Below, piece by piece: positions 51,001-57,000 of a DNA stretch of 64,000 bases. Source of the DNA: a virus; IMG/VR virus record IMGVR_UViG_3300042273_000448; one strand, given 5' to 3'. The position numbers were made by a program. Position 1 is the stretch's first letter, and each line of letters begins with the position of its first letter.

Positions 51001-54000
51001 ATATATAATTTGCGCAACATACGGGACGTTTAGTACAGGGATCAATATACCTAATTTAGGGCATCTTATTTTTGCTGCCCCCTATAAGTCGAAAATCAGG
51101 ATACTCCAATCTATAGGCCGGGTTTTACGTAAACATGCATCAAAAAATGGTGCTATTATATACGATTTGGTAGATCATAATAACAAATGGTTCCCAAAAT
51201 ACGGCGATATTAGATTAAGATTTTATGATAAAGAAAAGTTTGAAGTAATAGAGAAGGAGTTAAAAGAACCTTAATGAAATTTAAAGAATTTATGCTTAAT
51301 GAGATGTTATCTAATGAGATGAATCTCAATGATAAAACTGATGATGAAATTTTAAGAATGGCTATTGTTGCTGAACAGGATGCTATTGTTCTTTATCAAT
51401 TGATGGCTAGAAAAGTAAAAAACAAAAAAGTAAAGGAAGTTCTTCTTGATGTTGCTCGAGAAGAAAAAGTTCATATTGGTGAATTTAAAGGCCTTTTAGA
51501 AATGTTAGATAAAGAAGAAATTCCTTCAGAGAAAGAAGGAAAAGATGAAATTGAATAAATAATTAAAATATGCTTTAGTAGGAGTCAGTTTAAATGAGAG
51601 ATTATTTAATAGAAAATCATATATGAAAAGATCAAGAAGGGAAAGATAAATTCCTTGCAAAAGAAAAGAAAATTACAAATGAATTTTGGATTAATTTTCT
51701 TGGCTTTCTTGGTCTGTATGCAAAATATAAAGATGAGAACAAACTCATTCAATATTTTAAACAGTCTACAGTAAGACTAGACAAAGTTACTGATACAGAT
51801 TCTGATCTAATGGTTATTTTGAAAGTCATTGATGACAAAAAAGTTATACCTGACATGACTATGACCAAGATTACCAAAATGCTCGCCAAAATTAAAATGG
51901 GAACATTGGGTGGGCTGGACGAAAATATGTTTAGAGACGAAATTATCAAAAGAATAAAAGTTTCATCTTTATACCCATATCCACAAATTTCCGCTCTTCT
52001 TAAAGATTTTAAGAAAGGAAATAAAACTTTATCTGATATGCTTCCAGAACTCTACAGTTTAGCGATGCAGCATAAGAGAGCACATGAATTTAGGGTATTA
52101 TATAAAAGGCTTTCAAGTCCTTCAGATAGTACCCAGGATGCTACAGACGCACCTGTAACTGTTGATACTGTTGTCCCAAAAGTTTCGTCAGTCAAATCTG
52201 CATTAACAGGCGAACCTAAGACTACAAATATTCCTGTTAAAACTCAAGTTATCCCTACTGATGAGCCAAAAGAAATTCCTGCTCCAACTTGGCAGGATAT
52301 TACTTTATATACTAATGCAAATCAACTAGATCTTGAATTAAGCACATATTATCTTCTAATGTATCTGGTTTCTAATAGTAAATCTTCTAGTGATATTCAA
52401 ACTATTGTTAGAAGTCTTTATATGAGATATACTCCTTCAAGAACAGTAATGAAGCAGTTTTTGTTTGACGAAATTCCAGATGAAATCAAAAAGCAATTCC
52501 CTACAATCGAAAAATTATATACCCCAATTAAAGGAGATTTTTCTAGATTGTCTCCATATTTTATTGAATATGCATTTAAAGATTCACTTCTTTTTGATTT
52601 TAGATATATGGTTAGAACTCTTCAGATGAAAGATAATATAAAAGATCTATATACAACTTTTTCTTCTTTTTTTATTGAAGATTTAAAAAAATATTTTTCA
52701 GAATGAAGAGGCTCTTTAAAAATTGCTTCTAAAGTTCCTGACAAATATATTGATGAATTAGATTCTATTCTTAAATCTACATTCCCAGATTGTTTGAATG
52801 AAAAAAATATAATTAGAGCAATTATTATGCTGCGGGGAAACGATTTTGAGACTCTTATTCATGGCATTTATGGGGATCAAAAAATTGAAATTGTAGATTA
52901 TTTAGGGCATTTTGCTGAATATATGACTTTGGATACTATAAATGTTGTGATTTCTATTGAGAGTAGATCATCAAAAGAAATAGCAAAAAAATGGATTTTA
53001 TTAGATGATAAAAAAAGTGCAGCATATAGATGAGCTGATTCAATGTTGACACTTAAAGACAAAATTGGTGATAAATTATCATATGAAATTCTTAATTCTG
53101 AGTTAGTGAAGAGAACAAATCCAACCTCCTTTCATGAATTTTATTTAAAACATTTGAAAGATAATAATTGAACTTTAAAAGAATATATTGAACACTATAA
53201 TTTACCATATTCTGAATTTATTGAACGAGTAAAATCAAGTAATGATGATCTTAGAAAGTATCTTACTTTGGCATTTTTTTTACATAAAGAATATCAAACA
53301 GATCATTCATATTTGATTGAGGATCTTGCACTTGAGACTGGCCCAGGATTTAAATGGATAGATGTTTATATTAGTGAACGAGAAGAATTTAGTTTGGTTG
53401 GACTTTATTGTTTGAATTATTTTGCATATAAAGGAAACTGGACCAAATTTGCGTATTTGGTCAAAACTATAGAAAGAGACTCAAAAAACAATTATCACCC
53501 CAAATATATTATTGGCGAAGTTAAAGTTATTAAAAATATTTTTAGGAAGCTTAATACATCTATGCCTGAGTTTCTACTTTTTTATACACTATTAACAAAA
53601 TTAATAGATGATAAGTTCGATATGAGTACGGTGCAAAATTGGGGAATTGAAGCAGATTTTATATTTAAGAACCCCGATTTGTTTATAGATTTAAATAAAA
53701 TAGTAGCATACAGATTACAGAATTTTATTAAATATTTTGAAAATAGTGATTATGATTTATCAAAAAGCATAAAGATAGACGCAGCCATTAAAACTATAAT
53801 TAAAGAGAATGATGATAGTACATATGGTTTCTTTTCAGTTAAAGACTATAGGTTTAATTTAAAAACTTTTAATTCATATAAAGATATATGGTTAGAACAT
53901 GTAAAATATAAAATTAAGATTTCAGGTCTTCATATTCTAAGAGATTTTAATTATTTAATTTCGAAAGGATTTTTAGATAAAGCTTTTGTTCAACAATTTT

Positions 54001-57000
54001 TAGCAGACAATATGGACGATGAAAGATATAAAAAAAATGTATATGATTATGTATATAACTTTCCGGTATATGAACAAGATGAATTAAAAAAATCTTTTGC
54101 CTTAGAATATTTCGATTCAAAAGACAAAATAAATGATTTCTTATTAAATCATGAAGATAATGATTGAAGATTAAAATATCTTAATAGAGCAGGATACTAT
54201 ACATCTAAGGAAGCTACTGAAAATATTGCGGAATATTTAGATCGAAATTCTTTCATGATTGGAAAGTTATATGACGATTATGGAGTAGATGCCCTAATAG
54301 AATATTTTAAGAATGATAATGTTCAAGGGGTTTGGGATAAAATTAGTTCTGGTAAAAGACTTTTAAATAAGACCAATAGTCTTGAATATATCATGTTAGA
54401 TATGTTATCTGATAAAGATAAACTTCAAAAACTTGATGATCTATTAGATGCATTTCCTAATAAAATTGCTAATTCATTAGTTAATACATTGAAAGATCAA
54501 CTTTTGATTTATCCACTATTAAAAGATATTTTCAATGATGATAACCCTTTAAAACCCTCAATTAAATTAACCCCTTCTAGAATCAAAACATTATTGAAAT
54601 ATAATAACTTTGAATTTAAGGGAGCAATGCTTAGAAAGAAGCCAAGAGAAAAATGGGCAGATTACTTTGTGCGTGTTGAACAAGTATTAAAGGGAGATGC
54701 TCTCATTCCAGATATCAATTTGGAAAAAATTGAGGAAACTCAAGATCAGCTTAATGAAAAGTCTGTTGAATATTCTAAATATTATAATGGAAAACATGGA
54801 AATTCTGCTGTTGAATTTATTGAATCCTTTAATGTTAATATGAAATATCCTGAATTTGATCAATTTAGAACAAGATTTGGAGCTAGTGAACTTATTCCAG
54901 CTTTCCATGCTTCAGGATTAACAGCATCAAACTTTATTTTAAGATTTGGGTTTACTGTTATTCCTGCAAACGATTCTTCTACTGTTGGCAGAATGCTTGA
55001 TATTCATAATATGCTTTTAGTTAAACCTAAAAGTGATGGAGATGCTATTGAAGAGTCTAATGATTATATTGAATATTTAGAAAATGGATATTTTCCTGTA
55101 TCATCACGAGAATCTGGTAAACGAGTTACATATAGTGATTATCCAACAGATTTATATCATTGGAGAACAATAGATACTGTTGGTGGAATTTATGTAACTA
55201 ATGTTATTGAAAAGGCTGCTCAATATCTTGGAGATGATGGTTACTCAAGAAGAGAAGGAACAGTTGGGACAATCTATGAATGTGAAGTAAATCTAGGGGA
55301 TTATGGACTTCATCATCATGTTGCAGGTACCGGAAACGACTCAATTCGTTCTCCCGAATGAGCAATTTGTTGACCTCAAGCTCAAATTAACATTGTAAAA
55401 GCTCATAAAGTAATGTTCACAAATAAGAAAAGAATTAAAGAACTTAAAGCTAAATATCCTAATGCTTTAAAAGAAAACAAGTATTTTAAACGATTTGCAG
55501 ATTATCTTCAGGAGCAAGAAATGATTAAAAGTAAAAATGTTATTACATTTGTGTTTCATCAGTGTACAGTACCAACTGCTAAAGAAATTATGCCTTGGGA
55601 AGATTTTGAAAAGAAAGTTATTAAGAAATCTAACAAGATGTATGTTGATTCAAATCAGTTTGGTATCGGTATAACCTTCCATACGGATAAAGATCTTAAT
55701 GGTGTAGTTCGAGTTCCATTTACTGATGAGTTTATGGTAGATGACCCCGAAGGTTTATATTCTCAGTTTCTGATGTTAGTTGATGAATGTAAAGGTTAAG
55801 GAGACGGGAGCTTCGGCTCCCTTTCATTATGACACAATTTATTAAATTTTTGAGAATGGATCTAAAGAGTGGTGATTCTAAAAGGTCCTATTTTGGAAAG
55901 GCGGCTGCTGGTGCCATTGTATATGCTAAAAAGGAAAAAGCCTTCCTAGTTCTTCAAAGACAAAAAGATACTATAGACGGATGGAAAAAAGTCAAAGAGG
56001 CAGGAACTTGAAGCATTGTTGTTTCGGGAAAAGTTGATGATTCTGATAAATGACCAAAAATAACAGCCAAAAGAGAATTTAAAGAAGAACTGCGATATAA
56101 TGGCACCTTTAAAATTTCAGAAAAACCATTTGATATTTTTGAGGATGGAGATTTTACTTTTACAACCTTTATAATAACTGTGGATGAGATATTTGAACCA
56201 AAGTTAAATTGGGAACATTCAGCTTATAAATGAATTACATCTTTTAAAGATATTCCTGCGCCTATTCATTTTGGAACAAAAAGAATTTTAAAGAAGTTGC
56301 AAATCAAATACAAAATGTAATTTGACTAATAAGTTATACATTAAGCTCTTTAATGAGTTATATGTATAACTTATTAGTCATTTTTCCTAATTAGAGAATT
56401 ACTTCTCCAGTTTCTTCATCAATCATTTCTTCCAATATAAATTTTTTACATAACTTTAAATTTTCTTCAAATTTATCTTCTGCTCATACAGTAAGAATTT
56501 TATAACCAGCATTAATAGCGATATTATTTTTAAAGGCGTCCCTTTCAAGTGCTTTAATATAGTCACATTCTTTGTCTCAAACATGCCTTCATTGTTCTTT
56601 TTTATCTATAGATCATGTATCTCTTACATGAGATCCATTGCCATTATATTCTATTATAAGTTTATCAAATAATGTAAAATCAAACATAAATCTATTTTTT
56701 CTATTATTGTATGTTATACACAATTCAGAACTTTCTGGTATACCACATTTAATATCTTTAAAATCTGCAATATTCTCTTCAAATAATCAATCTATCAATT
56801 CATAAAATAACTTTAAGGATTCTTTGGAAACCGACCTAGTATTTCCTGATGATCTTTCACAAAACAAATTATATCTTTTTATGCCCTCATCTTCTCCATA
56901 TCTATCTATAAAATTGTGTAAATTTTGTTTTGATTTTTCTCTAAATATGGTATGTCTTCTAGTTCCTTCTTCCTTTCCATATATTCTAATCATATTATCT

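Follow-up and report, generated by a model that had tools for sequence, protein, structure and literature searches.

The PARP of Aeromonas phage Aeh1 was described by Perina et al. (2014; PMC4245714), and the family that contains it, PHROG 18612, counts among the commonest viral ADP-ribosyltransferase (ART) families (Iyer et al., 2022; PMC9503650). According to published surveys, phage ARTs are often packaged in the head, especially in myoviruses (PMC9503650). Our search of the literature found no experimental test of any PHROG 18612 member. A second precedent is provided by stop-codon-recoded phages, whose genomes assign an amino acid to a standard stop codon (Borges et al., bioRxiv 10.1101/2021.08.26.457843).

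We analysed a stretch of 64,000 nucleotides from the virus record IMGVR_UViG_3300042273_000448, hereafter the window. It carries a T4-like gene set (gp13, gp15, UvsW, UvsX, portal, MCP, sheath, TerL, gp32, NrdD and beta-glucosyltransferase) and derives from a T4-like myovirus with TGA as a tryptophan codon. In a profile search, the protein encoded at 51594..55799 (+) matched PHROG 18612 in three stretches with an E-value of 9.8e-82, and by this similarity it belongs to that widespread phage family, together with the known Aeh1 'PARP'. The explanation that best accounts for the whole, with a probability of roughly one half, is an intact PARP-type enzyme that would be made late, packaged in the head and injected.

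A 1401-codon frame interrupted only by TGA

Translation of 51594..55799 (+) yielded a single frame running from TAA to TAA, with 1401 sense codons and a terminal TAA, just as the original prediction had proposed. An in-frame TAA directly abuts the ATG at 51594, so that no upstream extension is possible, and a Shine-Dalgarno-like AGGAG (51580..51584, +) lies 9 nt 5' of this ATG. The frame contains seven internal stops, all of them TGA, at codons 11 (51624..51626), 371 (52704..52706), 480 (53031..53033), 526 (53169..53171), 858 (54165..54167), 1256 (55359..55361) and 1260 (55371..55373); translating the window sequence over the entire frame revealed no TAA or TAG, one of the findings that had been named as refuting the prediction. 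With table 11, the frame was split into the same five pieces that had first been noticed (51810-52706, 52794-53033, 53268-54167, 54255-55361 and 55413-55799), all in the same frame. The probability of such joins had been put at (1/3)^5, and chance is excluded more strongly by 100 shuffles of the window, where the longest TAA/TAG-free frame reached at most 213 codons (mean 155). Between the stop codon and the start of the following NUDIX gene lies a hairpin, GGGAGC-TTCG-GCTCCC followed by TTT (55806..55821, +).

Across the 56 ORFs of the window we counted 244 tryptophan codons, comprising 86 TGA and 158 TGG, and none of these ORFs ends in TGA, all terminating in TAA or TAG. Both replication genes (gp32, UvsW, UvsX and NrdD) and structural genes contain TGA, so the recoding does not resemble a switch limited to late genes. 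We then compared codons with orthologues: codons 480, 1256 and 1260 are TGA here and TGG in orthologues (at codon 1260, TGG in orthologue P0002 and TGA in P0004), whereas codons 32, 233 and 1335 are TGG here and TGA in orthologues. Comparison of this gene with two orthologues thus shows TGA and TGG trading places in both directions at six conserved tryptophan columns, by which TGA is read as tryptophan and not as glycine (code 25). Codon 11 (W11) falls in an aromatic column of the family, and codons 371, 526 and 858 lie in variable regions, with F, L or K at codon 526 in orthologues. Codon 1256, directly after the predicted catalytic Glu, sits in a column that aligns with PARP1 Y989 and holds W in 32 and Y in 8 of 40 relatives.

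The gene is almost certainly intact, with TGA read as tryptophan. If the TGAs were real stops, the locus would be a decayed pseudogene or several small genes in a row, with the long frame arising by accident. This reading is in line with the seven breaks under the standard code and with the lack of the expected suppressor, a tRNA-Trp(UCA), in three related loci (L001, L002 and L005) and in the set of 8 tRNAs encoded by the window. We consider its chances close to nil: the frame is far longer than the shuffles allow, full length is kept in five orthologues that carry TGAs at other positions, TGA interchanges with TGG at conserved tryptophan columns, no gene of the window ends in TGA, and the conserved catalytic strand itself contains two TGAs.

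Protein layout and catalytic domain

The family comprises 265 clusters/representatives at 50% identity, mostly of 1000-1570 aa, and N-terminal and C-terminal blocks are common to more than 100 proteins in this size range. There are four full-length orthologues (1400-1419 aa), and members from cultured phages, namely Aeh1 ORF131c (1211 aa), ORF165 of Stenotrophomonas phage Ps15 (~1202 aa) and gp92 of Pseudomonas phage pf16 (~1312 aa), share ~28-31% identity with the window protein. Structure models are those of orthologue P0001, which stands in for the window protein. The protein begins with a conserved all-helical domain (residues ~12-173; 51627..52112, +; model pLDDT ~95), for which no specific structural relative emerged. 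This is followed by an S/T/P/V-rich linker predicted to be disordered (residues ~174-232; 52113..52289, +; model pLDDT ~37), a long all-alpha body (residues ~233-1039; 52290..54710, +) that varies between relatives apart from its last ~100 residues, the PARP-type ART domain (residues ~1040-1277; 54711..55424, +), and finally a C-terminal alpha/beta domain that is conserved but of unassigned function (residues ~1278-1401; 55425..55796, +; pLDDT >90 except in one loop).

Using hhalign, we aligned the ART domain with PARP1 at E-values of 1.9e-10 (local) and 3e-12 (global); the PARP1 sequence used agrees, up to 'GEVALG', with the PDB alignment to chicken PARP. The family profile also matches PARP1 in the PDB (E 1.5e-10), with PARP1/2 and tankyrase as the nearest counterparts of the catalytic domain. 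An H-Y-E triad lies in register with PARP1 H862, Y896 and E988: H1105 (54906..54908, +; H in 39/40 relatives), Y1200 (55191..55193, +; Y in 40/40) and, from the global alignment, the predicted catalytic E1255 (55356..55358, +; E in 40/40). An ART fold had been anticipated for the C-terminal region, and the profile alignment supports one of the PARP type; a PARP-clade fold with H-Y-E is very probable.

In a single-sequence Pfam scan, neither the window protein nor P0001 matched PF00644, which 33 of the 40 more distant relatives do match (best E 9e-11). The window protein was missed because of a ~60-residue insertion between 'GRMLD' and 'GGIY' (55002..55181, +), where PARPs have their donor loop; only the query clade carries it. 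In all distant relatives phmmer matches break there, at q1135/q1198, and hhalign handles the segment as an insert; it is predicted to be structured (pLDDT 79-96). By manual matching of 'EKAAQY' with 'SKSANY' of PARP1, the position of PARP1 S904 is Ala.

We predict an active transferase with reasonable confidence. Each residue of the triad, as well as a K and a second Y, is retained by 39-40 members of a set of 40 divergent relatives, and this points to catalysis being under selection. This conservation also makes it quite unlikely that the fold serves no transfer to macromolecules, being either an NAD+-consuming hydrolase or a dead pseudo-PARP used as a binding module; known pseudo-PARPs such as PARP13 and TASOR have lost triad residues. 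The failed single-sequence PARP scan, the large donor-loop insertion and the Ala at the S904 position were weighed as observations against treating activity as assured.

The original prediction had suggested that the C-terminal region could be of a different ART type, an R-S-E mono-ADP-ribosyltransferase like T4 Alt acting through R1094, S1128-T1130 and E1229-x-E1231. Its motifs are indeed found in the right order (FRTRFG at residue 1091, DSSTVGR at 1127 and IYECEV at 1227), and the five closest sequences all share R1094, S1129 and E1229. Among 40 relatives, however, the candidate R is kept in only 4 and S-S-T is not conserved, with E-x-E kept in 31/40 and 22/40; neither sequence nor structure revealed similarity to the R-S-E families T4 Alt, VIP2 and ADPrib_exo_Tox (PF03496), and direct comparison with T4 Alt gave no detectable sequence similarity. 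The original prediction is partly borne out: the region is an ART domain, but of the PARP type. We rejected an R-S-E enzyme related to T4 Alt as exceedingly improbable, given poorly kept motifs and an H-Y-E set in PARP1 register.

Neighbourhood, probable late expression and proposed delivery

The gene is flanked by uvsW and a rubrerythrin-like gene, then by NUDIX, uvsX and a gp46-like gene. The NUDIX hydrolase gene (55829..56320, +; Pfam E 3.9e-11) lies immediately downstream and also neighbours the orthologous genes of L001, L002 and L005. A NADAR gene (61479..61973, -; Pfam E 6.3e-26) and a T4 Tk.4-like Macro-domain gene (61957..62373, -) are also present, so that all three neighbours named in the prediction were recovered, the Macro gene through its similarity to T4 Tk.4 (E 1.4e-7), its Pfam match being weak and below the cut-off (E 0.0057). 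Association with NUDIX, NADAR and Macro is seen at 3, 1 and 1 of 56 loci, respectively, and only in the close recoded clade.

Located 33-40 nt 5' of the ATG, in very AT-rich DNA, AATAAATA (51554..51561, +) matches the T4 late-promoter consensus TATAAATA at 7/8 positions and is a putative late-promoter element. Upstream of family genes, the TAAATA core occurs at -58..-25 in 24/34 cases against a background of 2.1% (P ~1e-32) and is missing in 10/34; the exact TATAAATA precedes 7 of ~30 (P 1.5e-8). In the window, the element was seen ahead of the TerL, gp24-like, portal-operon, scaffold, MCP, sheath and gp13-like genes and not ahead of gp32, NrdD, UvsW, UvsX or gp46; most of the phage's structural genes have the exact octamer. 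Late expression of the gene is, on this pattern, somewhat favoured.

The protein starts with MRDY followed by the family motif L-I-E-N-H-I-W (51594..51626, +), which includes a putative gp21-type L-x-E site that would be cut after E7; the leader MRDYLIE, with N following, fits the gp21 cleavage motif [LI]-x-E. Comparable leaders ending in [LI]-x-E are found in the T4 record for the head-processed proteins IPI-III, Alt, gp24 and gp67. In 112 full-length relatives, the motif columns are [LIV] (110), x, E (110), N (105), [ST] (96), [LFI] (110) and [YWF] (111), and 110 of them carry [LIV]-x-E-N at a distance of 4-26 residues from the N-terminus. The T4 internal-protein leader is a capsid-targeting signal. 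The strict T4-like pattern is found in only 15/112 relatives; leaders range from 4 to 26 residues, that of the query being short, and those of 4-5 residues are too short for T4-style capsid targeting, so the conserved E-N-S-L-Y may instead belong to the fold of the N-terminal domain. The window also encodes a gp21-like prohead protease (33285..33872, +; GTG start, 3 TGA; tblastn with T4 gp21, 45.6% identity over 147 aa, E 4e-30), which would process the proposed leader.

Taken together, the [LIV]-x-E-N motif, the gp21-like protease and the late-promoter core suggest a late-made, possibly head-packaged effector. Head packaging and injection themselves are put forward tentatively, at slightly less than even odds. 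The setting of the gene among recombination genes (uvsW, uvsX and the gp46-like gene), away from head genes, was counted on the other side, as were the 10/34 relatives without the element and the 7/8 variant found here. In the explanation that we prefer, the gene would be transcribed late from a T4-type late promoter, and the protein would enter the prohead, where a gp21-type protease, cutting behind the conserved [LIV]-x-E, would remove its leader. Matured in this way, it would be delivered to the next host with the DNA, like T4 Alt and the internal proteins, and would attach mono- or poly-ADP-ribose to host macromolecules, using host NAD+, at the very start of infection. Free ADP-ribose or ADP-ribose adducts would be handled by the NUDIX enzyme encoded next door and by the Macro and NADAR proteins encoded close by.

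The same intact PARP-clade enzyme could also remain unpackaged and work within the cell that makes it, at a mid or late stage of infection. Its targets could, for instance, be proteins of the host or phage, or DNA ends, with a link to recombination-dependent replication, comparable to the action of eukaryotic PARP1-3 at DNA breaks. The position between recombination genes, the presence of UvsW within 10 kb in 14/56 related loci and a catalytic domain nearest PARP1/2 and tankyrase would suit such a role, and our literature search found no virion proteomics for any family member. We nevertheless judge it rather unlikely: the late-promoter element and a conserved [LIV]-x-E that follows a variable leader are traits of T4 head-delivered proteins, PARP1-type DNA-sensing domains (zinc fingers, WGR, BRCT, HD) were not detected, and the N-terminal 1000 residues gave generic solenoid matches only. 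Late expression alone cannot separate this alternative from packaging.

A more far-reaching version of the preferred explanation, which we regard as unlikely, holds that a T4-like phage family loads a ~160 kDa PARP-type enzyme into its capsid via a cleavable T4-style leader, injects it and modifies host targets, possibly with polymers, within the first seconds, phage Nudix, Macro, NADAR or ARG enzymes being the matching erasers or recyclers. If true, this would be a complete PARP-type writer/eraser system in bacteria, delivered by the virion.

Comparison with described systems

As in the recoded phages of Borges et al. (10.1101/2021.08.26.457843), standard gene callers break genes of this phage into fragments; its points of difference are a T4-like lineage and the presence of TGA in replication genes as well.

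In contrast to eukaryotic PARP1, PARP2 and tankyrase (PF00644), no zinc finger, WGR, BRCT, ankyrin or SAM module was detected in the window protein, nor were the helical regulatory domain (HD) and WGR that mark the PARP1-3 subclade detected ahead of its ART domain. An insertion predicted to be structured takes the place of their donor loop, the acceptor loop is short, and Ala corresponds to Ser904 of PARP1.

T4 Alt and the window protein are both large ART-bearing proteins of T4-like phages with a short leader ending in [LI]-x-E (MELITELFDE in Alt), and the T4 record places Alt in the capsid and has it enter with the DNA, the route of delivery proposed here. The window protein differs in ART clade, is twice the size of Alt without detectable sequence similarity to it, and is a putative head protein. 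Many family leaders, of the form M-[KRS]-x-[FY]-[KRQ]-[DES]-[FYH], resemble those of T4 IPI-III (MKTYQEFIAE, MKTFKEF), and this phage has the [LIV]-x-E motif as well as a homologue of gp21; the rarity of the strict pattern, the spread of leader lengths and the short query leader set the family apart from IPI-III.

The cultured members of PHROG 18612 come closest. Ps15 ORF165, pf16 gp92 and Aeh1 ORF131c have the same architecture, with conserved ends, a variable helical middle and a PARP-type domain, and share with the window protein the size class (1200-1400 aa), occurrence in T4-like myoviruses and the H-Y-E triad. The window gene is distinguished from them by its seven TGA tryptophan codons, and its product by the ~60-residue donor-loop insertion of its own close clade.

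Reading frame and recoding of TGA

Translation of 51594..55799 (+) gave the single long frame of the original prediction: 1401 residues, seven internal stops that are all TGA (codons 11, 371, 480, 526, 858, 1256 and 1260) and an eighth, terminating stop, TAA. An in-frame TAA directly 5' of the ATG at 51594 precludes any upstream extension, and AGGAG is found 9 nt 5' of this ATG. Under the standard code we recovered the predicted run of consecutive same-frame ORFs (five, 79-368 aa), and, across 100 shuffled versions of the window, frames without TAA or TAG reached at most 213 codons versus the 1401 observed, which confirms the long frame as far beyond chance.

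Recoding was found window-wide: with TAA and TAG as the sole stops, the stretch resolves into dense long genes, 1-10 TGA codons lying within many of them, and 56 genes, all ending in TAA or TAG and none in TGA, contain 86 TGA versus 158 TGG. TGA is present in replication genes (gp32-like SSB, UvsW, UvsX, NrdD) and in structural genes, with zero in the major capsid protein, scaffold-like, gp46-like, NADAR and Macro genes. We retrieved four full-length homologues of 1400-1419 aa from public metagenome protein sets and compared the gene with the DNA of two homologues, finding query TGA opposite orthologue TGG at codons 480, 1256 and 1260, and query TGG opposite orthologue TGA at codons 32, 233 and 1335. 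A fifth orthologue (L005, on the 165-kb viral contig IMGVR_UViG_3300028601_000019) has 8 TGA and 4 TGG. Among 40 divergent relatives the column of codon 1256 is occupied by W (32 sequences) or Y (8), and the column of codon 11 is aromatic. On these alignments, the amino acid encoded by TGA is tryptophan. None of the eight tRNAs in the window cluster at 11225-13302 (-) (Gly, Pro, Leu, Glu, Thr, Leu, Ala, Asn), and none in three related loci, is a suppressor with anticodon UCA.

The phage is a T4-like myovirus: the window encodes a beta-glucosyltransferase, gp32-like SSB, NrdD, CCA-adding enzyme, large terminase, gp24-like vertex protein, portal, scaffold-like protein, gp23-like major capsid protein, tail sheath, UvsW, UvsX/RecA and gp46-like SMC ATPase, and syntenic relatives add gp13, gp15 and tail-tube matches. 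Code-4-type usage in such a phage raises the question of its host. Using T4 gp21 as a query, we located a prohead protease at 33333-33749 (45.6% identity, E 4e-30) within an ORF at 33285-33872 (+) that has an apparent GTG start after GGAGG and 3 TGA codons, so that ATG-only and standard-code calls both truncate it. The large terminase (25447-28916, -) is encoded by two table-4 ORFs that overlap (25447-26832 and 26811-28916), of which the upstream ORF has 10 TGA versus 1 TGG and a mid-ORF homing-endonuclease module (phrog_314, E 1.6e-46); the split may reflect an intein, a homing-endonuclease insertion or a frameshift. The beta-glucosyltransferase homologue (1046-2158, -; phrog_7922, E 7.8e-48), with an exact copy of the T4-type late-promoter element TATAAATA 5' of the gene, suggests glucosyl-hydroxymethylcytosine DNA, as in T4.

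Protein family and catalytic domain

Megablast with the gene as query found no match among 50,697 phage records, and single-sequence Pfam and PDB searches with the whole protein returned nothing meaningful, so that family profiles were required. The protein matched PHROG 18612 (E 9.8e-82; a 1214-position family of unknown function), and tblastn retrieved proteins of 28-31% identity from 37 phage records, spanning Stenotrophomonas Menderaviruses, the Aeromonas T4-like phages Aeh1, PX29 and phiAS5, Pseudomonas pf16 and Ralstonia RSP15. Annotated relatives measure ~1202 aa (Ps15), 1211 aa (Aeh1) and ~1312 aa (pf16), and a few depositors named them ADP-ribosyltransferase or PARP catalytic domain protein. 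We then ran HMMER exhaustively with the TGA-free stretch of codons 859-1255 as the query, which yielded 265 cluster representatives (50% identity), mostly of 1000-1570 aa and matching near the C-terminus. They have the same layout, with conserved blocks at the N-terminus (query 5 to ~200) and at the C-terminus flanking a middle that varies; the C-terminal block is interrupted only by query ~1136-1197, a segment confined to the query's close clade. Structure prediction and the Pfam scan used an alignment of 58 sequences trimmed from 113, and both structure models are of the orthologue P0001, not of the window protein.

For a profile built from 40 C-terminal regions, the only matches were catalytic domains, those of PARP1 (E 1.5e-10), PARP2, PARP3 and tankyrases. 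Individually, 33 of the 40 members matched the Pfam PARP family (PF00644), the insertion-bearing query clade giving no match. In the profile alignment to human PARP1, H862 is matched by the 'AFHxSG' His, Y896 by 'GGIY' and the 'LLGEVALG' strand by query 'IYECEVNLG', and in global mode E988 of PARP1 'LLYNE-YIVYD' is matched by query 'IRSPE-WAICWP'; the PARP1 sequence was cross-checked in its part up to 'GEVALG' by a PDB alignment to chicken PARP. The resulting query triad, H1105, Y1200 and E1255, is kept in 39, 40 and 40 of the 40 relatives respectively, and K1207 and Y1211 (the positions of PARP1 K903 and Y907) are likewise conserved across them.

The original prediction had proposed an R-S-E mono-ADP-ribosyltransferase like T4 Alt. 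The ADP-ribosyltransferase fold stands; the clade was wrong, and so were the catalytic residues, the domain being of PARP type with an H-Y-E triad. The proposed Arg of FRTRFG (R1094) is kept in only 4 of 40 relatives, the S-S-T motif is unconserved and located in the donor-loop region, and the two acidic residues of E-C-E are kept in 31 (E1229) and 22 (E1231) of 40. T4 Alt itself showed no similarity to the window protein (best E = 5). Identification of the catalytic domain as PARP-type and not Alt-type is firm, and enzymatic activity is likely. Polymer formation by the enzyme, if it occurs, would put poly(ADP-ribosyl)ation to use in a bacterial setting, for which examples are rare.

Because TGA codons 1256 and 1260 lie inside the catalytic strand, a standard-code call stops one codon past the catalytic Glu. 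The database protein P0006 terminates exactly at '...SIRSPE', with the catalytic 'SPE', and P0005 (93% identity to the window protein over 302 aa) just before the position of query W1190. Both entries are cut at recoded TGAs, evidence that public protein sets contain mis-split versions of recoded PARP-like genes. Standard-code calling fragments the gene, and PARP-type enzymes of recoded phages are therefore missed or mis-split.

Genomic neighbourhood

A NUDIX gene lies directly 3' of the PARP-like gene, after a GGGAGC-TTCG-GCTCCC hairpin, and NADAR and Tk.4-like Macro genes lie 5.7-6.6 kb downstream on the opposite strand; we found no Rfam family in 47-58 kb. The genes from which an ADP-ribose theme had been predicted are thus in place, but their linkage to the PARP-like gene is limited to the close recoded clade (NUDIX in 3, NADAR in 1 and Macro in 1 of 56 loci). 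Three recoded relatives keep the order UvsW, rubrerythrin-like, (Alt-like), PARP-like, NUDIX, UvsX. The rubrerythrin-like gene (51274-51558, +; 94 aa, Pfam E 1.6e-11) overlaps the uvsW stop and is conserved in the loci of close recoded relatives L001, L002 and L005. Between it and the PARP-like gene, just upstream of the latter, a separate Alt-like R-S-E gene (PF03496, ADPrib_exo_Tox) is present in L002 (1299-2105) and partly in L005 (6422-6685), so that some relatives carry both ADP-ribosyltransferase clades side by side. This gene is absent from the window, where the gap is 35 nt.

In Aeh1-type Aeromonas phages (Aeh1 itself, L004, 560-1441; L014, L036 and L043) an ADP-ribosylglycohydrolase gene is found immediately upstream and a homologue of NadV (nicotinamide phosphoribosyltransferase) ~6 kb downstream of the PARP-like gene; in Ps15, NadR and NadV genes lie no more than 6 kb away. 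The Aeh1-type surroundings look like a writer/eraser/NAD-salvage neighbourhood unlike that of the window. Partners vary among the 56 loci, and a universal operon was rejected; since Aeh1-type phages and Ps15 carry other ADP-ribose or NAD genes, the theme recurs with different partners.

A paralogous trio at 6080-7474, 16935-18239 and 56391-57881 (all -) carries ~30-residue tandem repeats of the type 'YGEEEGTRRYNEW' or 'KYGDENYNN' and an endonuclease-like (homing-endonuclease-like) C-terminus. The paralogue adjoining the PARP-like operon has 9 TGA and 0 TGG, with an exact TATAAATA 5' of the gene.

Proposed late expression, N-terminal leader and comparison with known phage PARPs

In 24 of 34 non-redundant family genes (background 2.1% per window; binomial P ~1e-32), including those of the window, L005, Ps15, pf16, Aeh1 and PX29, the T4 late-promoter core TAAATA, mostly as NATAAATA, lies 25-58 nt 5' of the start codon; the exact TATAAATA is found in 7 of ~30 (P 1.5e-8). 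The window's own copy, AATAAATA (51554-51561), matches at 7 of 8 positions and is embedded in AT-rich DNA. Within the window, the element occurs 5' of the terminase, gp24-like, portal-operon, scaffold, capsid, sheath and gp13-like genes and is absent 5' of gp32, NrdD, UvsW, UvsX and gp46. Across the whole window, TATAAATA with one mismatch is barely enriched (333 versus 303 expected), only the position-specific analysis being informative. A sigma-70 promoter scan found 56 sites versus 57.7 expected from shuffles, and the MotA-box-like TGCTTTA at 51571-51577 lies 17 nt from the ATG and was for that reason rejected as a middle promoter of the PARP-like gene.

At the N-terminus, 112 full-length relatives share [LIV]-x-E-N-[ST]-[LFI]-[YWF], 4-26 residues from the end and preceded by a leader of variable length, with E kept in 110/112 and N in 105/112; 15 of the 112 have a leader of the form M-x(0-3)-[FY]-[KRQ]-[DES]-[FYH]. 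The T4 prohead protease gp21, of which the window encodes a homologue, cuts after [LI]-x-E, and the leader of the internal proteins is a capsid-targeting sequence. Head-processed proteins in the T4 record have comparable leaders (IPII and IPIII MKTYQEFIAE, IPI MKTFKEF..., Alt MELITELFDE, gp24 MAKINELLRE, gp67 MEGLIE), and, according to its annotations, gp21 cleaves gp23 and gp24, and Alt, present in the capsid, enters along with the DNA. A scan of the window ORFs for [LI]-x-E-N close to the N-terminus picked out 4, near a rough chance estimate, so that this count is no evidence alone and only conservation across the family counts. Some family leaders are too short for targeting signals, and the role of the conserved motif could be structural alone. 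Taken with the late-promoter element, the motif suggests that the protein may be made late and delivered in the head; virion delivery remains a plausible proposal, and we found no virion proteomics of the Ps15, pf16, RSP15 or Aeh1 homologues in the literature. These two signals, in the promoter and in a protease-site-like N-terminus, turn a 'hypothetical protein' into a concrete hypothesis, that of a head-packaged, injected PARP-like effector.

Both the leader motif and the late-promoter element appear to be newly observed in this family, for which our literature search found no experimental work. Aeh1 was listed among four dsDNA viruses with PARP genes, three of them with H-Y-E intact (Perina et al., 2014; PMC4245714), PART (PARP) was counted among the most frequent viral ADP-ribosyltransferase families, phage members of which class were argued to be often head-packaged (Iyer et al., 2022; PMC9503650), and the Ps15 paper mentions the gene only as encoding the second-largest protein (PMC9025141). 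Large phage PARP-domain proteins are common and occur in well-studied groups (Aeh1, pf16, Stenotrophomonas Menderaviruses), none of them characterised, and the window gene joins this known kind, set apart by its TGA recoding and its donor-loop insertion.
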